From: Escherichia coli
GTDB taxonomy: Bacteria > Pseudomonadota > Gammaproteobacteria > Enterobacterales > Enterobacteriaceae
NCBI RefSeq assembly: GCF_011045215.1
Contig: NZ_CP049201.1
Strand: one strand, 5' to 3'
DNA: 64,000 bases
The notes below the pieces were generated by a model that made no database searches, had not been told where the DNA came from, and saw only the letters and a list, made by a program, of their open reading frames with translations. A program made the translations under genes and the position numbers. Positions 9,323-58,126 of the stretch are shown here, one piece after another. Every line of letters begins with the position of its first letter. Position 1 is the stretch's first letter.

Positions 9323-9407
9323 GCCGGATGCGGTGCGAGCGCCTTATCCGGCCTGGGGAATGAGCGATTTGTAGGCATGATAAGACGCGTTAGCGTCGCA
9401 TCAGGCG
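9323..9407. repeat. REP/BIME element (two REP palindromes) between convergent alkA and dgcE
   Basis: gccggatgcggtgcgagcgccttatccggc and gtaggcatgataagacgcgttagcgtcgcatcaggc, typical E. coli REP sequences. Confidence 0.85.
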
Positions 9408-16267: not shown

Positions 16268-16305
16268 GTAGGCCTGATAAGACGCGTAAAGCGTCGTATC
16301 AGGCG
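16268..16305. repeat. REP element
   Basis: gtaggcctgataagacgcgtaaagcgtcgtatcaggcg palindrome downstream of asmA. Confidence 0.85.
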
Positions 16306-18545: not shown

Positions 18546-18584
18546 CAGTGTATTGGTAGCTAGAAAGCCAGGGGCGGTAGCGTG
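18546..18584 (+). promoter_or_regulatory. JUMPstart element with ops site (GGCGGTAGCGTG), RfaH-dependent antitermination signal in the cps leader
   Basis: cagtgtattggtagctagaaagccaggggcggtagcgtg; ops at 18573..18584; about 180 bp upstream of wza. Confidence 0.85.
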
Positions 18585-22540: not shown

Positions 22541-22577
22541 GTAGGCCGGATAAGGCGTTCACGCCGCATCCGGCAAG
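22541..22577. repeat. REP element between wzc and wcaA
   Basis: gtaggccggataaggcgttcacgccgcatccggcaag. Confidence 0.8.
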
Positions 22578-32922: not shown

Positions 32923-32924
32923 AC

Positions 32925-33112
<188 letters not shown>

Positions 33113-33202
33113 AATGAATGCGAAACCGCGGTGTAAATAACGACAAAAATAAAATTGGCCGCTTCGGTCAGGGCCAACTATTGCCTGAAAAAGGGTAACG
33201 AT

Positions 33203-34573
33203 ATGAAAAAATTAACCTGCTTTAAAGCCTATGATATTCGCGGAAAACTAGGCGAAGAACTGAATGAAGATATCGCCTGGCGCATTGGTCGCGCCTATGG
33301 CGAATTTCTCAAACCGAAAACCATTGTGTTAGGCGGTGATGTCCGCCTCACCAGCGAAACCTTAAAACTGGCGCTGGCGAGAGGTTTACAGGATGCGGGC
33401 GTCGATGTGCTGGATATTGGCATGTCCGGCACCGAAGAGATCTATTTCGCCACGTTCCATCTCGGCGTGGATGGCGGCATTGAAGTTACCGCCAGCCATA
33501 ACCCGATGGATTATAACGGCATGAAACTGGTGCGCGAAGGGGCTCGCCCGATCAGCGGCGATACCGGACTGCGCGACGTCCAGCGTCTGGCAGAAGCTAA
33601 CGACTTCCCTCCAGTCGATGAAACCAAACGCGGTCGCTATCAGCAAATCAATCTGCGTGACGCTTACGTTGATCACCTGTTCGGTTATATCAACGTCAAA
33701 AACCTCACGCCGCTCAAGCTGGTGATCAACTCAGGTAACGGCGCGGCGGGTCCGGTGGTGGACGCCATCGAAGCCCGCTTTAAAGCCCTCGGCGCACCGG
33801 TGGAATTCATCAAAGTGCACAATACGCCGGACGGCAATTTCCCCAACGGTATTCCTAACCCCCTGCTGCCGGAATGCCGCGACGACACCCGCAATGCGGT
33901 CATCAAACACGGCGCGGATATGGGCATTGCCTTTGACGGTGATTTTGATCGCTGTTTCCTGTTTGACGAAAAAGGGCAGTTTATCGAGGGCTACTACATT
34001 GTCGGCCTGTTGGCAGAAGCATTCCTCGAAAAAAATCCCGGCGCGAAGATCATCCACGATCCACGTCTCTCCTGGAACACCGTTGATGTGGTGACTGCTG
34101 CTGGCGGCACGCCGGTGATGTCGAAAACCGGACACGCCTTTATTAAAGAACGTATGCGCAAGGAAGACGCCATCTACGGTGGCGAAATGAGCGCTCACCA
34201 TTACTTCCGTGATTTCGCTTACTGCGACAGCGGCATGATCCCGTGGCTGCTGGTGGCCGAACTGGTGTGCCTGAAAGGAAAAACGCTGGGCGAACTGGTG
34301 CGCGACCGGATGGCAGCGTTTCCGGCAAGCGGTGAGATCAACAGCAAACTGGCGCAACCCGCTGAGGCGATTAATCGCGTCGAACAGCATTTTAGCCGTG
34401 AGGCGCTGGCGGTGGATCGCACCGATGGCATCAGCATGACCTTTGCCGACTGGCGCTTTAACCTGCGCTCCTCCAACACCGAACCGGTGGTGCGGTTGAA
34501 TGTGGAATCGCGCGGTGATGTGCCGCTGATGGAAGCGCGAACGCGAACTCTGCTGACGTTGCTGAACGAGTAA
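33203..34573 (+). CDS. cpsG: Phosphomannomutase
   Basis: Track ORF 33155..34573; start set at ATG 33203 ([15 protein letters not shown]), 456 aa; TASHNP active-site motif. Confidence 0.93.
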
Positions 34574-34627: not shown

Positions 34628-36022
34628 ATGACAAATCTAAAAAAGCGCGAGCGAGCGAAAACCAATGCATCGTTAATCTCTATGGTGCAACGCTTTTCAG
34701 ATATCACCATCATGTTTGCCGGATTATGGCTGGTTTGCGAAGTGAGCGGCCTGTCATTCCTCTACATGCACCTGTTGGTGGCGCTGATTACGCTGGTGGT
34801 GTTCCAGATGCTGGGCGGCATCACCGATTTTTATCGCTCATGGCGCGGTGTTCGGGCAGCGACAGAATTTGCCCTGTTGCTACAAAACTGGACCTTAAGC
34901 GTGATTTTCAGCGCCGGACTGGTGGCGTTCAACAATGATTTCGACACGCAACTGAAAATCTGGCTGGCGTGGTATGGGCTGACCAGCATCGGACTGGTGG
35001 TTTGCCGTTCATGTATTCGCATTGGGGCGGGCTGGCTGCGTAATCATGGCTATAACAAGCGGATGGTCGCCGTAGCGGGGGATTTAGCCGCCGGACAAAT
35101 GCTGATGGAGAGCTTCCGTAATCAGCCGTGGTTAGGGTTTGAAGTGGTGGGGGTTTACCACGACCCGAAACCGGGCGGCGTTTCTAACGACTGGGCGGGC
35201 AATCTGCAACAGCTGGTCGAGGACGCGAAAGCGGGCAAGATTCATAACGTCTATATCGCGATGCAAATGTGCGACGGCGCGCGAGTGAAAAAACTGGTCC
35301 ATCAATTGGCGGACACCACCTGTTCGGTGCTGCTGATCCCCGATGTCTTTACCTTCAACATTCTCCATTCACGTCTCGAAGAGATGAACGGCGTTCCGGT
35401 GGTGCCGCTTTACGACACGCCGCTTTCCGGGGTTAACCGCCTGCTCAAACGTGCGGAAGACATTGTGCTGGCGACGCTTATTCTGTTGCTGATCTCCCCG
35501 GTGCTGTGCTGTATTGCGCTGGCGGTGAAACTCAGTTCACCAGGGCCGGTTATTTTCCGCCAGACTCGCTATGGCATGGATGGCAAGCCGATCAAAGTGT
35601 GGAAGTTTCGTTCCATGAAAGTGATGGAGAACGACAAAGTGGTGACCCAGGCGACGCAGAACGATCCGCGCGTCACCAAAGTGGGGAACTTTCTGCGCCG
35701 CACCTCGCTGGATGAATTGCCGCAGTTTATCAATGTGCTGACCGGGGGGATGTCGATTGTCGGTCCACGTCCACACGCGGTGGCGCATAACGAACAGTAT
35801 CGCCAGCTCATTGAAGGCTACATGCTGCGCCATAAGGTGAAACCGGGCATTACCGGCTGGGCGCAGATTAATGGCTGGCGTGGCGAAACCGACACGCTGG
35901 AGAAAATGGAAAAACGCGTCGAGTTCGACCTTGAGTACATCCGCGAATGGAGCGTCTGGTTCGATATCAAAATCGTTTTCCTGACGGTATTCAAGGGCTT
36001 CGTTAACAAAGCGGCATATTGA
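34628..36022 (+). CDS. wcaJ: Undecaprenyl-phosphate glucose-1-phosphate transferase WcaJ
   Basis: 464 aa, matches WcaJ (polyisoprenyl-phosphate hexose-1-P transferase). Confidence 0.93.
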   Translation: MTNLKKRERAKTNASLISMVQRFSDITIMFAGLWLVCEVSGLSFLYMHLLVALITLVVFQMLGGITDFYRSWRGVRAATEFALLLQNWTLSVIFSAGLVAFNNDFDTQLKIWLAWYGLTSIGLVVCRSCIRIGAGWLRNHGYNKRMVAVAGDLAAGQMLMESFRNQPWLGFEVVGVYHDPKPGGVSNDWAGNLQQLVEDAKAGKIHNVYIAMQMCDGARVKKLVHQLADTTCSVLLIPDVFTFNILHSRLEEMNGVPVVPLYDTPLSGVNRLLKRAEDIVLATLILLLISPVLCCIALAVKLSSPGPVIFRQTRYGMDGKPIKVWKFRSMKVMENDKVVTQATQNDPRVTKVGNFLRRTSLDELPQFINVLTGGMSIVGPRPHAVAHNEQYRQLIEGYMLRHKVKPGITGWAQINGWRGETDTLEKMEKRVEFDLEYIREWSVWFDIKIVFLTVFKGFVNKAAY

Positions 36023-36023
36023 T

Positions 36024-37502
36024 ATGAGCTTACGTGAAAAGACCATCAGCGGCGCGAAGTGGTCGGCGATTGCCACGGTGATCATCATCGGCCTCGGGCT
36101 GGTGCAGATGACCGTGCTGGCGCGGATTATCGACAACCACCAGTTCGGTTTGCTTACCGTGTCGCTGGTGATTATCGCGCTGGCAGATACGCTTTCTGAC
36201 TTTGGTATCGCTAACTCGATTATTCAGCGAAAAGAAATCAGTCACCTTGAACTCACCACGTTGTACTGGCTGAACGTCGGGCTGGGGATCGTGGTGTGCG
36301 TGGCGGTGTTTTTGTTGAGTGATCTCATCGGCGACGTGCTGAATAACCCGGACCTGGCACCGTTGATTAAAACATTGTCGCTGGCGTTTGTGGTAATCCC
36401 CCACGGGCAACAGTTCCGCGCGTTGATGCAGAAGGAGCTGGAGTTCAACAAAATCGGCATGATCGAAACCAGCGCGGTACTGGCGGGCTTCACTTTTACG
36501 GTGGTTAGTGCCCATTTCTGGCCGCTGGCGATGACCGCGATCCTCGGTTATCTGGTCAATAGTGCGGTAAGAACGCTGCTGTTTGGCTACTTTGGCCGCA
36601 AAATTTATCGCCCCGGTCTGCACTTCTCGCTGGCGTCGGTGGCACCGAACTTACGCTTTGGTGCCTGGCTGACGGCGGACAGCATCATCAACTATCTCAA
36701 CACCAACCTTTCAACGCTGGTGCTGGCGCGTATTCTCGGCGCGGGCGTGGCAGGGGGATACAACCTGGCGTACAACGTGGCCGTTGTGCCACCGATGAAG
36801 CTGAACCCAATCATCACCCGCGTGTTGTTTCCGGCGTTTGCCAAAATTCAGGACGACACCGAAAAGCTGCGCGTTAACTTCTACAAGCTGCTGTCGGTAG
36901 TGGGGATTATCAACTTTCCGGCGCTGCTCGGGCTGATGGTGGTGTCGAATAATTTTGTACCGCTGGTCTTTGGTGAGAAGTGGAGCAGCATTATTCCGGT
37001 GCTGCAATTGCTGTGTGTGGTGGGGCTACTGCGCTCCGTGGGTAACCCGATTGGTTCGCTGCTGATGGCGAAAGCGCGGGTCGATATCAGCTTTAAATTC
37101 AACGTATTCAAAACATTTCTGTTTATTCCGGCGATTGTTATTGGTGGGCAGATGGCGGGCGCAATCGGCGTCACGCTCGGTTTCCTGCTGGTGCAGATTA
37201 TCAACACCATTCTGAGTTACTTCGTGATGATTAAACCGGTTCTTGGTTCCAGTTATCGCCAGTACATCCTGAGTTTGTGGCTGCCGTTTTATCTCTCGTT
37301 GCCGACGCTGGTGGTTAGTTATGCGCTGGGCATTGTGCTGAAAGGGCAACTGGCGCTGGGGATGCTGCTGGCGGTGCAAATAGCCGCGGGCGTGCTGGCG
37401 TTTGTGGTGATGATTGTGCTGTCGCGCCATCCGCTGGTGGTGGAAGTGAAGCGTCAGTTTTGTCGCAGCGAAAAAATGAAAATGCTTTTACGGGCGGGGT
37501 GA
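36024..37502 (+). CDS. wzxC: Colanic acid repeat-unit flippase WzxC
   Basis: 492 aa polytopic membrane protein, matches WzxC. Confidence 0.92.
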   Translation: MSLREKTISGAKWSAIATVIIIGLGLVQMTVLARIIDNHQFGLLTVSLVIIALADTLSDFGIANSIIQRKEISHLELTTLYWLNVGLGIVVCVAVFLLSDLIGDVLNNPDLAPLIKTLSLAFVVIPHGQQFRALMQKELEFNKIGMIETSAVLAGFTFTVVSAHFWPLAMTAILGYLVNSAVRTLLFGYFGRKIYRPGLHFSLASVAPNLRFGAWLTADSIINYLNTNLSTLVLARILGAGVAGGYNLAYNVAVVPPMKLNPIITRVLFPAFAKIQDDTEKLRVNFYKLLSVVGIINFPALLGLMVVSNNFVPLVFGEKWSSIIPVLQLLCVVGLLRSVGNPIGSLLMAKARVDISFKFNVFKTFLFIPAIVIGGQMAGAIGVTLGFLLVQIINTILSYFVMIKPVLGSSYRQYILSLWLPFYLSLPTLVVSYALGIVLKGQLALGMLLAVQIAAGVLAFVVMIVLSRHPLVVEVKRQFCRSEKMKMLLRAG

Positions 37503-37530
37503 GTTGCTGTTTTCGGTTCCGACAACGGTT

Positions 37531-37716
37531 GCCGGATGCGGCGTAAAACGCCTTATCCATCCTACGGTTCTGTGCTCGGGACCTGTAGGCCTGATAAGAC
37601 GCGTCAGCGTCGCATCAGGCACTGAATGCCGGATGCGGCGTGAACGCCTTATCCGGCCTACGGTTCTGTGCTCGGGTCTTGTAGGCCTGATAAGACGCGT
37701 CAGCGTCGCATCAGGC
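37531..37716. repeat. BIME cluster (multiple REP palindromes) between wzxC and wcaK
   Basis: Repeated gccggatgcggcgtgaacgccttatccggcctacggttctgtgctcggg and gtaggcctgataagacgcgtcagcgtcgcatcaggc units. Confidence 0.85.
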
Positions 37717-37777
37717 AAAAAGCGGCAACGAAAAAAACAAACGCAGCCTCACCTGGCATCAAATTTATGAGGAAAAA

Positions 37778-39058
37778 ATGAAATTACTTATTCTGGGCAA
37801 CCACACTTGCGGCAATCGTGGCGATAGCGCCATCCTGCGCGGCTTACTTGATGCCATCAACATTCTCAATCCACACGCCGAAGTGGATGTGATGAGCCGC
37901 TATCCGGTCAGTTCTTCCTGGCTGCTCAACCGCCCGGTAATGGGCGATCCGCTGTTCCTGCAAATGAAACAACACAACAGCGCAGCGGGCGTTGTCGGGC
38001 GCGTTAAAAAAGTCCTCCGTCGCCGCTACCAGCATCAGGTACTGCTCTCGCGCGTCACCGACACTGGCAAGTTGCGTAATATCGCCATCGCCCAGGGATT
38101 CACTGACTTCGTGCGCCTGCTGTCAGGTTACGACGCCATTATTCAGGTCGGCGGATCGTTTTTTGTCGATCTCTACGGCGTGCCACAGTTTGAACATGCA
38201 CTTTGCACGTTTATGGCGAAAAAGCCGCTGTTTATGATTGGTCACAGCGTTGGCCCGTTCCAGGATGAGCAATTTAACCAACTGGCGAACTATGTCTTTG
38301 GTCACTGTGACGCGCTGATCCTGCGCGAATCGGTCAGCCTTGATCTGATGAAACGCAGCAATATCACCACCGCAAAAGTGGAACATGGCGTCGATACCGC
38401 GTGGCTGGTCGATCACCACACAGAAGACTTCACCGCCAGCTATGCCGTTCAACACTGGCTGGACGTTGCCGCACAACAGAAAACGGTGGCCATTACCCTG
38501 CGCGAACTGGCACCGTTCGACAAACGTCTCGGCACCACTCAACAAGCGTATGAAAAAGCCTTTGCCGGGGTGGTCAATCGCATTCTCGACGAAGGCTATC
38601 AGGTTATTGCGCTCTCCACCTGTACGGGCATCGACAGCTATAACAAAGACGACCGCATGGTGGCGCTCAACCTGCGTCAGCACATCAGCGATCCTGCCCG
38701 TTACCACGTAGTGATGGATGAACTCAACGATCTGGAAATGGGCAAAATTCTCGGAGCCTGTGAACTCACCGTCGGTACGCGCCTGCACTCCGCCATTATC
38801 TCAATGAACTTTGCCACTCCGGCGATTGCCATCAACTATGAACATAAATCCGCCGGGATCATGCAGCAGCTGGGACTACCGGAGATGGCAATTGATATCC
38901 GTCATTTACTGGACGGCAGCCTGCAAGCGATGGTTGCGGATACCTTAGGCCAACTTCCGGCGCTGAACGCACGACTTAACGAAGCTGTCAGTCGTGAGCG
39001 TCAGACGGGAATGCAGATGGTGCAATCTGTGCTTGAGCGCATCGGGGAGGTGAAATGA
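37778..39058 (+). CDS. wcaK: Colanic acid pyruvyl transferase WcaK
   Basis: 426 aa, matches WcaK. Confidence 0.92.
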   Translation: MKLLILGNHTCGNRGDSAILRGLLDAINILNPHAEVDVMSRYPVSSSWLLNRPVMGDPLFLQMKQHNSAAGVVGRVKKVLRRRYQHQVLLSRVTDTGKLRNIAIAQGFTDFVRLLSGYDAIIQVGGSFFVDLYGVPQFEHALCTFMAKKPLFMIGHSVGPFQDEQFNQLANYVFGHCDALILRESVSLDLMKRSNITTAKVEHGVDTAWLVDHHTEDFTASYAVQHWLDVAAQQKTVAITLRELAPFDKRLGTTQQAYEKAFAGVVNRILDEGYQVIALSTCTGIDSYNKDDRMVALNLRQHISDPARYHVVMDELNDLEMGKILGACELTVGTRLHSAIISMNFATPAIAINYEHKSAGIMQQLGLPEMAIDIRHLLDGSLQAMVADTLGQLPALNARLNEAVSRERQTGMQMVQSVLERIGEVK

Positions 39059-40275
39059 AGGTCGGCTTCTTTTTACTGAAATTTCCGTTGTCGTCAGAAA
39101 CCTTCGTCCTCAATCAAATTACCGCGTTTATTGATATGGGATTTGAGGTGGAGATTGTCGCGCTGCAAAAAGGCGACACACAAAACACCCACGCGGCATG
39201 GACGAAATACAACCTTGCCGCCAGAACCCGTTGGTTACAGGACGAACCTACGGGCAAAGTGGCGAAGCTGCGCCACCGCGCCAGCCAGACTTTACGCGGC
39301 ATTCATCGTAAAAATACCTGGCAGGCGCTCAACCTCAAACGCTATGGTGCCGAGTCGCGGAATCTGATTTTGTCTGCCATTTGCGGTCAGGTCGCAACAC
39401 CATTTCATGCCGATGTCTTTATCGCTCATTTTGGCCCTGCGGGGGTAACCGCAGCAAAACTACGCGAACTGGGTGTCATTCGCGGCAAAATTGCCACTAT
39501 TTTTCACGGCATTGATATTTCCAGTCGGGAAGTGCTCAACCATTACACTCCCGAATATCAACAACTGTTTCGACGTGGCGACCTGATGCTACCGATAAGC
39601 GATCTGTGGGCCGGAAGGCTGCAAAAAATGGGCTGCCCGAGGGAAAAAATCGCCGTATCGCGCATGGGCGTAGATATGACGCGCTTTAGCCCGCGTCCCG
39701 TGAAAGCGCCCGCAACACCGCTGGAGATTATTTCCGTCGCACGCTTAACCGAGAAAAAAGGCCTGCATGTGGCGATTGAAGCCTGCCGTCAGTTGAAAGA
39801 GCAGGGCGTGGCATTTCGCTATCGCATCCTCGGCATTGGCCCGTGGGAAAGACGCCTGCGCACCCTCATCGAACAATATCAACTGGAAGATGTGGTGGAG
39901 ATGCCGGGCTTTAAACCGAGCCATGAAGTGAAAGCGATGCTCGACAACGCGGATGTTTTCTTGTTGCCATCGGTAACGGGTGCGGATGGCGATATGGAAG
40001 GTATTCCGGTGGCGCTAATGGAAGCGATGGCGGTCGGTATTCCGGTGGTTTCTACTCTGCATAGCGGAATACCGGAACTGGTGGAGGCCGATAAATCCGG
40101 CTGGCTGGTGCCTGAGAATGATGCTCGCGCACTGGCGCAACGACTGGCGGCGTTTAGCCAACTGGACACCGACGAACTGGCTCCGGTTATCAAACGTGCT
40201 CGCGAAAAAGTCGAACACGATTTTAACCAGCAGGTGATTAACCGAGAACTCGCCAGCTTGTTGCAGGCTTTATAG
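39055..40275 (+). CDS. wcaL: Colanic acid glycosyltransferase WcaL (GT4)
   Basis: 406 aa, matches WcaL; start overlaps wcaK stop. Confidence 0.92.
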
Positions 40276-40285
40276 AGGAGAACGT

Positions 40286-41680
40286 ATGCCATTTAAAAAA
40301 CTCTCCCGACGCACCTTCCTGACGGCAAGCTCCGCGCTTGCCTTCCTCCATACCCCTTTCGCTCGCGCACTTCCCGCCCGACAAAGCGTTAACATTAACG
40401 ACTACAACCCACACGACTGGATCGCCTCATTTAAACAAGCCTTCGGCGAAGGGCAAACGGTCGTCGTGCCTGCCGGATTGGTTTGCGACAATATCAACAC
40501 CGGCATCTTCATTCCTCCTGGCAAAACGTTACACATCCTTGGAAGCCTGCGCGGCAACGGCAGAGGGCGATTTGTCTTACAGGACGGTAGCCAGGTGACA
40601 GGGGAGGAGGGCGGCAGTATGCATAACATCACCCTGGATGTGCGTGGCTCTGACTGCACCATCAAAGGGCTGGCGATGAGCGGCTTTGGCCCGGTAACGC
40701 AGATTTATATCGGCGGCAAAAACAAACGGGTCATGCGCAACCTGACCATCGATAACCTCACTGTCAGCCACGCTAATTACGCCATCTTACGCCAGGGATT
40801 TCATAACCAGATAATCGGTGCCAACATCACCAATTGTAAGTTCAGCGACTTACAGGGCGATGCCATTGAATGGAACGTGGCGATTAACGACAGTGATATT
40901 TTGATATCTGACCATGTCATCGAGCGCATCAACTGTACCAACGGCAAAATCAACTGGGGCATTGGCATAGGCCTTGCGGGAAGCACTTACGATAATAATT
41001 ACCCGGAAGATCAGGCAGTGAAAAACTTTGTCGTGGCGAATATCACGGGATCGGATTGTCGGCAGTTGATCCATGTTGAAAATGGTAAACATTTTGTTAT
41101 TCGTAATATCAAAGCCCGCAATATCACGCCGGATTTCAGTAAGAAAGCAGGTATTGATAACGCCACGGTCGCTATTTACGGTTGTGATAATTTCGTGATT
41201 GATAATATTGAAATGATTAATAGCGCCGGGATGTTAATCGGCTATGGGGTAATTAAAGGCAAATATCTCTCGATACCGCAAAATTTCCGAGTGAATAATA
41301 TTCAACTGGATAATACCCACCTTGCTTACAAATTGCGCGGTATCCAAATCTCCGCCGGGAATGCTGTCTCCTTTGTGGCGCTGACTAACATTGAGATGAA
41401 GCGTGCGTCGCTGGAGTTACACAACAAACCGCAACATCTTTTTATGCGTAATATCAATGTGATGCAGGAATCCTCTGTTGGACCCGCATTGAGCATGAAC
41501 TTCGACATGCGCAAAGACGTTCGCGGCGTCTTTATGGCGAAAAAAGAAACACTGCTGTCTCTTGCAAATGTTCATGCGGTGAATGAAAGAGGGCAAAGCT
41601 CCGTCGATATCGACAGGATTAATCACCATATTGTTAATATGGAAAAGATTAACTTTAGATTGCCAGAACGGAGGGAGTAG
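40286..41680 (+). CDS. wcaM: Colanic acid biosynthesis protein WcaM
   Basis: 464 aa; twin-arginine-like N-terminus [15 protein letters not shown]; matches WcaM. Confidence 0.92.
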
Positions 41681-44227: not shown

Positions 44228-44266
44228 CAGTGCTCTGGTAGCTGTAAAGCCAGGGGCGGTAGCATT
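44228..44266 (+). promoter_or_regulatory. JUMPstart element with variant ops site (GGCGGTAGCATT) in the O-antigen cluster leader
   Basis: cagtgctctggtagctgtaaagccaggggcggtagcattg, about 350 bp upstream of the first O-antigen gene; last ops positions differ from canonical GGCGGTAGCGTG. Confidence 0.75.
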
Positions 44267-58085: not shown

Positions 58086-58126
58086 GCCGGATGCGATGTT
58101 GTTGTCGCATCCGCTTACCCCGCAAC

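Follow-up and report, generated by a model that had tools for sequence, protein, structure and literature searches.

BIME-2 elements consist of z2 and y REPs that are arranged in multiple tandem copies with a short S linker, and their copy number varies between strains (Ton-Hoang 2012, PMC3333891). One such REP element of K-12 MG1655, REP144, is located between wzxC and wcaK of the colanic acid operon (NC_000913.3 2118467-2118652, 186 bp, 'Tandem wzxC/wcaK'). A comparison of six strains by Iguchi et al. 2011 (PMC3158064) described for O157 strains REPs and REP indel polymorphism at wcaK-wzxC and cpsG-cpsB, and these indels coincided with recombination junctions. REPs that attenuate or stabilize within an operon form a functional class with REP325 and malE-malF as examples. 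REP325 (yjdM-yjdN), the source of naRNA4, is a partial terminator and upstream stabilizer which reduces the gene behind it by a factor of about 8 to 10 (Harris et al. 2026 bioRxiv); fragments of REP325 with 2-4 hairpins show no detectable Rho dependence. For REP-containing tandem gene pairs the same study reports a median log up/down ratio of 0.96 versus -0.09 for controls. Exonuclease protection and Rho-linked 3' ends have been assigned to REPs (Dar & Sorek 2018). In the case of translation-regulating REPs, which are likewise REP hairpins 3' of a stop codon within an operon, the account of Liang, Rudd & Deutscher 2015 given in PMC12306157 sets the distance between stop codon and REP at <16 nt.

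The element analyzed here is located at 37531-37716 of a 64-kb window (the whole stretch of E. coli DNA that was analyzed, 64,000 nucleotides) and agrees with REP144 in position, length, number of REPs and REP order. It is already known, as REP144 in K-12 and through the polymorphism published in 2011. We consider it highly probable that this BIME-2 array, the ortholog of REP144, is tolerated mobile DNA that is co-transcribed with the operon and causes no marked change in expression from wzxC to wcaKLM, with an effect that is likely small. The array and its surroundings contain the following features.

36024-37502, + strand: wzxC, colanic acid repeat-unit flippase (NCBIfam NF007773, 834 bits, full length; RefSeq annotation of near-identical genomes)
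37503-37515, + strand: left hairpin arm (GTTGCTGTTTTCG), begins right after the wzxC stop codon
37520-37527, + strand: left copy (CGACAACG) of an 8-bp direct repeat flanking the array
37531-37565, + strand: Y REP no. 1, degenerate, sense-RNA hairpin of -13.7 kcal/mol
37566-37584, + strand: tail-to-tail S linker of unit 1, 19 nt, GGTTCTGTGCTCGGGACCT
37585-37620, - strand: Z2 REP no. 1, inverted, 35/36 to the probe consensus, hairpin of -20.5 kcal/mol
37621-37627, + strand: head-to-head linker ACTGAAT between unit 1 and unit 2, 7 nt
37628-37661, + strand: Y REP no. 2, 34/34 to the probe consensus, hairpin of -21.3 kcal/mol
37662-37680, + strand: tail-to-tail S linker of unit 2, 19 nt, GGTTCTGTGCTCGGGTCTT
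37681-37716, - strand: Z2 REP no. 2, inverted, 35/36 to the probe consensus
37723-37730, + strand: right copy (CGGCAACG) of the 8-bp direct repeat
37729-37742, + strand: right hairpin arm (CGAAAAAAACAAAC), pairs with the arm at 37503-37515
37769-37772, + strand: wcaK Shine-Dalgarno sequence GAGG, 5 nt before the ATG, found by sequence inspection
37778-39058, + strand: wcaK, colanic acid pyruvyl transferase (TIGR04006, 935 bits)

The original prediction had placed a REP/BIME cluster between the two genes, and its coordinates proved to be exact: the 186 bp contain four REP palindromes, organized as two tandem BIME-2 units, each with a Y REP, a 19-nt linker and an inverted Z2 REP. The REPs alternate in orientation in the order Y(+), 19 nt, Z2(-), 7 nt, Y(+), 19 nt, Z2(-), and all four carry the GTAG/CTAC tetranucleotide of the REP feet, as a terminal CCTAC or an initial GTAGG when read on the + strand. 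The start-to-start spacing of the units is 96/97, with 95% identity over 75 nt (repeat family D1). REP typing by blastn-short with probes for Y, Z1 and Z2 gave 34/34 and 26/28 (the partial, degenerate copy) for Y and twice 35/36 for Z2, and the Z1 probe found no match at this locus. The Rfam naRNA4 model of a Z2/Y pair, with 79.7 bits, supports this typing independently. The degenerate Y REP at 37531-37565 carries two stem-base mismatches, with CCAT replacing CCGG, and an additional A in the loop.

That these palindromes are beyond chance is evident from both motif excess and folding energy. With <=1 mismatch allowed, the 64-kb window contains 16 copies of the REP head motif GCCKGATGCGRCG against an expectation of 0.33, a number that was never reached in 100 shuffles. 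For the sense RNA of 37495-37790 the folding energy is -139.4 kcal/mol compared to -94.7 +/- 5.3 for the shuffles (z = -8.4), and the individual REP hairpins range from -13.7 to -21.3 kcal/mol. A BIME-1 with an IHF site was ruled out by the missing Z1 REP, the 19-nt linker and the missing IHF consensus; WATCAANNNNTTR had no match on either strand of the wzxC-wcaK intergenic region.

As predicted, the array is wholly extragenic, between the wzxC stop at 37502 and the wcaK ATG at 37778; wcaL and then wcaM follow downstream of wcaK. The distance between the wzxC stop codon (TGA, 37500-37502) and the first REP at 37531 is 28 nt, and control of wzxC translation by a stop-proximal REP was rejected on the basis of the <16 nt limit in the account cited above. 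The presence of its own Shine-Dalgarno sequence GAGG argues that wcaK translation starts independently, uncoupled from wzxC. A scan of 37000-38200 found no sigma-70-like promoter on either strand and no intrinsic terminator. The BIME lies in a loop, as the arms 37503-37515 and 37729-37742 on its two sides form a small hairpin that existed before it. In the E. coli O145 allele, which lacks the BIME, this hairpin reads GTTGTTGTTTTCG-gttccggcaa-CGAAAACAACAAC and forms a perfect 13-bp stem of -16.1 kcal/mol, and in the window the arms around the BIME are still paired in the minimum-energy fold. The 8-bp repeat CGGCAACG is single in the empty allele and present on both sides of the BIME in filled alleles.

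The copy number of the units differs considerably within the species. The comparison with K-12 and other strains that the original prediction had suggested gave 2 units for K-12 and 0-6 units in the E. coli sample. For this census we ranked 4688 complete genomes with a match and used 60 of them, spaced evenly along the list. No unit was present in 5/60 genomes, one unit in 10/60, two in 16/60, three in 3/60, four in 9/60, five in 5/60 and six in 5/60; a truncated 145-bp allele (2/60), a BoxC-like repeat allele (4/60) and one genome without a match to the locus (1/60) account for the others. The allele sequences were verified for 0, 1, 3, 4, 5 and 6 units and for the 145-bp form. Among individual strains LF82 and Nissle have 6 units, an O25b:H4-ST131 strain 4, K-12 2, O157:H7 1 and O145 0. 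The ACTGAAT linker joins all units in the 3- to 6-unit alleles. Between strains the array expands and contracts by complete units of 96 bp, within the range of 0-6.

Outside E. coli, the array is missing from most other Enterobacteriaceae: in 50 of 77 species the wzxC-wcaK spacer is <=45 bp long, with a median of 29 bp. Together with the 0-6 units in E. coli this argues against a fixed 'design'. In different lineages of the Enterobacteriaceae, REP, BoxC-like or ERIC-like repeats are present at the same junction. We regard it as improbable that the junction attracts hairpin-forming repeats of these three unrelated families preferentially, or is under selection for them, and the recurrence of such repeats in many lineages could reflect selection for structure instead of tolerance. 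If selection favors a structured spacer, the copy number would be a possible heritable dial on pyruvylation by wcaK, on wcaL and wcaM, or on local supercoiling.

Three further elements of the operon were located in the window.

18573-18584, + strand: canonical ops element GGCGGTAGCGTG, part of the leader of the operon, roughly 180 nt before wza
22541-22574, - strand: lone perfect Y REP between wzc and wcaA, which brings the REP sites of the operon to three
32924-33112, + strand: sister BIME-2 array in the cpsB-cpsG gap, made of a half Z2 and then two Y+Z2 units with an 11-nt linker and a period of 88

The ops element would recruit the anti-terminator RfaH. The units at wzxC-wcaK had been described as near-identical to those at cpsB-cpsG, and this is true of the hairpins (Y 32/34, with both differences forming a compensating T-A pair; Z2 35/36) but not for the whole units, which are 76-88% identical and have a period of 96 versus 88 due to an 8-nt indel in the tail-to-tail linker (19 nt versus 11 nt). 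Each array is homogeneous in this respect, as the wzxC-wcaK units share the 19-nt linker and ACTGAAT and the cpsB-cpsG units share the different 11-nt linker. The proposal of two BIME-punctuated sub-blocks is an undercount of the REP sites, with the third at 22541-22574. The REP between wzc and wcaA is conserved according to Iguchi et al. 2011 (PMC3158064). In K-12 the cpsB-cpsG intergenic region of 104 bp contains a half REP alone and no array.

We propose that the array, as two tandem inverted Y/Z2 REP pairs of a repeat family associated with the TnpA-REP/RAYT transposase, would be transcribed as part of the wza-wcaM polycistronic mRNA, because there is no promoter-like or intrinsic-terminator-like site between wzxC and wcaK. 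In this mRNA it would fold four stable hairpins and may act as a partial barrier to 3'-5' exonucleases that spares the wzxC-proximal mRNA, with a small and context-dependent effect. The DNA would be a preferred gyrase site, as is BIME-2 in general. The array would not cause expression to change markedly from wzxC to wcaKLM. It presumably represents tolerated mobile DNA and not a designed regulator, in an operon that is tightly packed and leaves few gaps.

The original prediction had inferred graded expression of the late colanic acid genes from the BIMEs, and the published K-12 data do not support this. After Rcs induction by colicin M, wzxC and wcaK show the same microarray value (log2 4.45 each; PMC3599342 Table 1), although saturation or unequal baselines could mask a step of <=2-fold in these fold-changes. 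Along the operon the induction decreases gradually from 7.12 for wza to 2.71 for wcaM, with no step at the BIME. Without induction, the DESeq2 baseMean values of K-12, which are very low counts, not length-normalized and given without strandedness, are 36.2 for wzxC and 37.5 for wcaJ upstream of the repeat and 90.9 for wcaK, 161.5 for wcaL and 144.3 for wcaM downstream. Expression that is higher upstream than downstream of the element was thus not found in the published K-12 data, consisting of microarray fold-changes and very low counts. The supplementary 3'-end data of Adams et al. 2021 that were searched have no entry for wzxC, wcaK, cpsB, cpsG, wcaA or wcaM, and the operon was probably silent there. 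Beyond PMC3599342 we found no paper with a per-gene expression table for the operon in its main text; PMC12057083 names the genes only within a deletion. The K-12 step from cpsB to cpsG was discarded as a second BIME test on account of the half REP at this position.

Other explanations have to be weighed against tolerated, co-transcribed mobile DNA. A role at the DNA level is possible but somewhat doubtful: the array may be a strong, transcription-independent gyrase site or a topological insulator that would relieve the positive supercoils of a 23-kb operon for membrane proteins. BIME-2 elements are significantly enriched in gyrase cleavage sites, with preferential cutting of Y REPs, and the cleavage signal goes up, not down, under transcription block (Sutormin 2019); the wzxC-wcaK array is of the canonical BIME-2 type and includes one perfect Y REP. 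On the other hand, the cleavage sites were found in 'a subset' of BIME-2 only, the locus is absent by gene name from the supplementary tables of that study that were searched, and strains with 0 units as well as most species manage without the array.

We are similarly hesitant about the idea that the array is phenotypically inert, i.e. purely selfish or neutral DNA which persists in a tolerant gap. The presence of 0-6 copies, truncated variants and a swap for another repeat family within one species, the lack of the array in most relatives, the decayed first Y REP of this strain and the absence of a detected expression step in the K-12 data all agree with it. However, mRNA hairpins of -20 kcal/mol are known barriers to 3'-5' exonucleases (Dar & Sorek 2018), the stems of the Y REPs at cpsB-cpsG were kept paired by compensating substitutions, and repeats were acquired recurrently and independently at the wzxC-wcaK junction.

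It is unlikely that the BIME serves as intra-operon punctuation, a partial Rho-assisted terminator and upstream stabilizer that keeps wcaKLM below wza-wzxC, with the BIME at cpsB-cpsG as a second step. The array does form stable hairpins on the sense strand, and REP325, which is also composed of Z2/Y, lowers the gene downstream of it and stabilizes the one upstream. The upstream bias of REP-containing tandem pairs on average makes a modest attenuation at wzxC-wcaK conceivable, and the K-12 induction falls toward the 3' end of the operon. This drop, however, occurs within the repeat-free wcaK-wcaL-wcaM part, while at the junction itself K-12 shows no step despite having the same four REPs, and the uninduced counts go up, not down, past the BIME. 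REP325 has 12 hairpins, and its fragments of 2-4 hairpins revealed no detectable Rho dependence. The canonical ops site in the leader, the range of 0-6 units in E. coli, the short spacers of 50 of 77 species and the absence of a cpsB-cpsG array from K-12 also speak against punctuation.

An internal promoter that is provided or hidden by the repeat, so that wcaKLM would be transcribed independently of the wza promoter, is highly improbable. The uninduced baseMean of wcaK, wcaL and wcaM is 2.5- to 4.5-fold above that of wzxC, wcaJ and cpsB, and the lower fold-induction of wcaL and wcaM would fit a raised baseline, but these are the low, unnormalized counts of unstated strandedness mentioned above, the scan of both strands revealed no sigma-70-like promoter, and nothing assigns such a promoter to the BIME over wzxC.

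Three annotation signals overlap the repeat.

37504-37770, + strand: spurious 88-aa ORF through the palindromes, from the ORF list
37488-37718, - strand: spurious 76-aa ORF, from the ORF list
37588-37658, - strand: match to Rfam naRNA4 (RF02564), 79.7 bits (gathering score 59.5)

The ORFs look artefactual, in agreement with the original prediction: Pfam searches with both yielded nothing above threshold, the RefSeq genomes inspected carry no gene annotation over the BIME, and the 88-aa ORF is wholly gone in the 0-unit and BoxC-like alleles. Small proteins were rejected as a candidate, with only sub-threshold Pfam noise (E = 0.06-0.66) for both ORFs. That the array encodes a nucleoid-organizing non-coding RNA of the naRNA4 type is extremely unlikely, since the match above the gathering score is antisense to the operon (55.4 bits on the operon-sense + strand), the model is a REP pair that also matches the cpsB-cpsG array, and the 2026 study saw no chromosome compaction by REP325/naRNA4. 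The model was built from the Z2/Y pair of REP325 and therefore matches any Z2/Y pair, so a naRNA4 gene at wzxC-wcaK was discarded and the match taken to reflect the repeat family alone. For annotation this means that ORFs across the repeat should not be called genes and that an Rfam naRNA4 match at this position should be read as 'REP pair' and not as a small-RNA gene.

Taken together, tolerated mobile DNA of the BIME-2 type describes this locus best, and comparison with the known systems places it within them. As a copy of the commonest dispersed repeat of E. coli, and of the best known one in bacteria, the element carries little weight for discovery. The natural alleles with 0-6 units in one inducible operon are nevertheless a handy series for testing BIME-2 copy number against downstream expression, and tuning of downstream expression by BIME-2 copy number is a question raised in the recent REP literature. 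The array shows every sequence-level feature of the BIME-2 family (Gilson/Bachellier, per PMC3333891) and no sequence-level difference from it; gyrase binding, a biochemical property of the family, may extend to this copy. REP325 shares with the array the REP types and the tandem position within an operon, but differs in its 12 hairpins and the 8- to 10-fold downstream drop from the 4 hairpins at wzxC-wcaK with no drop in the K-12 data. Compared to K-12 MG1655, the intergenic region of 275 bp has 3 SNPs. The first Y REP reads CCGTCC in REP144 and CCATCC in this strain, which is one further stem mismatch, and the second Y REP has one mismatch in REP144, whereas the copy of this strain is a perfect consensus. 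To the polymorphism described by Iguchi et al. 2011 the present analysis adds the range of 0-6 units from thousands of genomes and the comparison across species.

Five colanic acid genes of the window were confirmed with NCBIfam equivalog models, and 551 bases around the array aligned to complete genomes of E. coli with identities reaching 99.8%, in matches annotated as wzxC and wcaK. The gap between these two genes has a length of 275 bp. Its four REP palindromes lie precisely where the original prediction had located a REP cluster.

Colanic acid genes (NCBIfam equivalogs) and REP elements around the wzxC-wcaK gap
34628-36022, wcaJ
36024-37502, wzxC
37531-37565, plus strand, Y REP 1, degenerate
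37585-37620, minus strand, Z2 REP 1, 35/36 to the probe
37628-37661, plus strand, Y REP 2, 34/34 to the probe
37681-37716, minus strand, Z2 REP 2, 35/36 to the probe
37778-39058, wcaK
39055-40275, wcaL
40286-41680, wcaM

The first REP starts 28 nt behind the stop codon of wzxC, beyond the limit of fewer than 16 nt published for REPs that regulate translation (Liang, Rudd & Deutscher 2015, as cited in PMC12306157). The palindromes make up a tandem pair of units (period 96), with linkers of 19 nt (tail-to-tail) and 7 nt (head-to-head, ACTGAAT). With 16 REP-head motifs in the window versus 0.33 expected, the REP pattern is far above chance expectation, and the sense RNA of the array region has a folding z-score of -8.4. 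The overlapping ORFs called here were correctly regarded in the prediction as artefacts of the palindromes. BIME-2 elements consist of Y and Z2 REPs in inverted pairs with a short S linker (tail-to-tail), in tandem copies whose number varies between strains (Ton-Hoang et al. 2012, PMC3333891); judged by its sequence, the array shows all of these features and is a BIME-2. BIME-1 was ruled out because no Z1 REP was found in the array and no IHF consensus in the gap. The Rfam model of naRNA4, which was built on a Z2/Y pair of REP325 (the yjdM-yjdN array), matched the central Z2-linker-Y pair; on the minus strand the match scored 79.7 bits, against a gathering score of 59.5, and on the plus strand 55.4 bits. 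The model also matched the cpsB-cpsG array. We read this match as a confirmation of the repeat family and not as a small-RNA gene.

The units had also been described as near-identical to those between cpsB and cpsG. This holds for the hairpins, which are identical at 32/34 (Y) and 35/36 (Z2) positions, the two differences in Y (C2 to T, G29 to A) restoring a base pair. It does not hold for the whole units, which share 76-88% identity and differ in linker (19 versus 11 nt) and period (96 versus 88). Units resemble each other more within a locus than between the loci, as expected from local amplification (Ton-Hoang et al. 2012, PMC3333891). The cpsB-cpsG gap (32923-33203) comprises 281 bp with a half Z2 REP and two full Y+Z2 units, whereas the K-12 gap (locus L001, 12981-13084) has 104 bp with only the half Z2 REP (ACGTCGCATCAGGC); the difference of 177 bp is bounded by a direct repeat, CGTCGCATCAGG. 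Directly 3' of this BIME and directly 5' of cpsG (phosphomannomutase) lies a strong match to the Rfam cis-regulatory motif "algC RNA" (RF02929; 33149-33198, plus strand, 76.6 bits, gathering score 33.8), a sequence also present in the K-12 gap. Besides the two arrays, which the prediction had recognized, the operon contains a third REP site that it had missed, with an orientation opposite to the Y REPs of both arrays.

Further REP sites in the window
22541-22574, minus strand, single perfect-consensus Y REP in the wzc-wcaA gap
9323-9406, Y+Z2 pair outside the operon
16268-16304, Z2 copy with a 3-nt insertion, outside the operon
58086-58098, REP-head motif outside the operon

To determine allele sizes, the BIME-free allele of E. 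coli O145 and its flanks were used as query, with one match per genome, and the match span was converted to the insert size. The sample comprised 60 genomes, drawn at even spacing from the ranked list of the 4688 complete genomes that gave a match.

Alleles of the wzxC-wcaK gap in 60 E. coli genomes
0 units, 5
1 unit, 10
2 units, 16
3 units, 3
4 units, 9
5 units, 5
6 units, 5
145-bp truncated allele, 2
unrelated 161-bp intergenic region, 4
locus not matched, 1

Representative sequences of each class demonstrated expansion by whole units with unchanged linkers. The empty O145 allele (L004, 454-524) reads GTTGTTGTTTTCG-gttccggcaa-CGAAAACAACAAC, a perfect 13-bp hairpin directly 3' of the wzxC stop codon. 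In filled alleles the BIME is located in the loop of this hairpin (window 37503-37742), with the two copies of an 8-bp direct repeat on its sides (CGACAACG ... CGGCAACG); they resemble a target-site duplication or a substrate for precise deletion. The unrelated 161-bp gap occurs in about 5-7% of E. coli genomes; it was analyzed in strain PSS-10 (L005, 454-614), and BL21 has an intergenic region of similar size. Its dispersed repeat is of another kind, with the form CCCTCTCCC...GGGGTGAGGG; E. coli genomes contain it at a median of 15 places, and we regard it as BoxC-like. The presence of the BoxC family in E. coli was confirmed. This repeat, together with a ribosome-binding region (TTTTGAGGTCATA) like that of other Enterobacteriaceae, suggests that the allele was imported by recombination. 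Among 5,426 complete genomes of E. coli, 692 had no wcaK detectable by blastn; in these, about 13%, the 3' part of the colanic acid cluster appears to be missing or replaced.

A WcaK scan with one genome per species yielded 80 loci, and the wzxC-wcaK gap could be delimited in 77 of them (L007-L086). Across these 77 Enterobacteriaceae species the median gap is 29 bp; in 50 it does not exceed 45 bp and typically consists of TTTTAAGAGGTCATT followed by ATG. A recognizable dispersed repeat is present in 20 species: REP type in seven (including E. coli, E. whittamii, the Citrobacter amalonaticus group, a Citrobacter sp. and, with a degenerate copy, Salmonella enterica subsp. arizonae), BoxC-like in 12 and ERIC-like in one (L025). 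The BIME is therefore dispensable for the working of the operon. Nonetheless, unrelated palindromic, hairpin-forming repeats have settled at this junction repeatedly, making it a recurrent landing site.

The array is most likely transcribed within the operon mRNA, because a scan in and around the gap (37000-38200) found neither a sigma-70-like promoter nor an intrinsic terminator and wcaK possesses a Shine-Dalgarno sequence of its own. In this mRNA the array can form four hairpins, with energies between -13.7 and -21.3 kcal/mol. A canonical ops element, GGCGGTAGCGTG, is located in the operon leader about 180 nt 5' of wza (18573-18584, plus strand), and a second ops-like sequence, GGCGGTAG, lies after galF and before the O-antigen genes (44255-44262, plus strand). 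The ops element recruits RfaH, which suppresses Rho-dependent termination; by sequence both sites resemble the RfaH-recruiting leaders that would be expected for the two polysaccharide operons. REP elements shield Rho-terminated transcripts from 3'-5' exonucleases (Dar & Sorek 2018), and gyrase cleavage is preferential in BIME-2 (Sutormin 2019). REP325 with its 12 hairpins acts both as partial terminator and as stabilizer, and tandem pairs containing REP show on average upstream-biased expression (Harris et al. 2026). With REP325 fragments of 2-4 hairpins, Rho dependence was not detectable.

From the two arrays the original prediction had suggested a graded expression of the late genes. In MG1655 treated with colicin M for 60 min (microarray, log2 ratios; PMC3599342) induction was 7.12 for wza, 5.10 for cpsB, 5.15 for cpsG and 4.82 for wcaJ, then 4.45 for both wzxC and wcaK on the two sides of the array, 3.63 for wcaL and 2.71 for wcaM. 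In a published RNA-seq table of uninduced K-12 the DESeq2 baseMean was 36.2 for wzxC, 90.9 for wcaK, 161.5 for wcaL and 144.3 for wcaM; the last three genes were 2.5- to 4.5-fold above wcaJ and wzxC, at very low counts and unknown library strandedness. These higher counts hint at a weak independent transcription of wcaK, wcaL and wcaM; the scan of 37000-38200 found no promoter-like site for them. The locus-specific evidence, which besides these expression data takes in the ops element of the leader and the lack of detectable Rho dependence in short REP325 fragments, points against a marked expression step at the array, although microarray fold-changes and very low counts of unknown strandedness are weak tests that leave room for a modest effect. 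Graded expression is a reasonable generic REP hypothesis, but the K-12 data for the junction do not support it, and it fits poorly with an array that has 0-6 units in E. coli and is absent from most relatives. Taken together, the array is best explained as a tolerated mobile repeat whose effects on mRNA decay and gyrase binding would be small at most.

In K-12 MG1655 the 275-bp intergenic region is the same except for three substitutions. Harris et al. 2026 list its array in a supplementary table as REP144 (NC_000913.3 2118467-2118652, "Tandem, wzxC / wcaK"); with 186 bp, it has the same length as the array in the window. A published in-vitro screen reported a NusG-dependent Rho-binding site at K-12 NC_000913.3 2118651-2118749 (plus strand, antisense to the operon); it corresponds approximately to window 37434-37532 on the minus strand, shares 1 nt with the edge of REP144 and extends into wzxC at its 3' end. 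Iguchi et al. 2011 (PMC3158064) described REPs in three gaps, wcaK-wzxC, cpsG-cpsB and wcaA-wzc, and noted that O157 strains differ by insertion and deletion of REPs, in coincidence with recombination junctions. The array is thus already known as a catalogued BIME-2 with published polymorphism at the locus, and only two points are mildly new: the measured spectrum of 0-6 units and the recurrent occupation of the gap by three repeat families across the Enterobacteriaceae.
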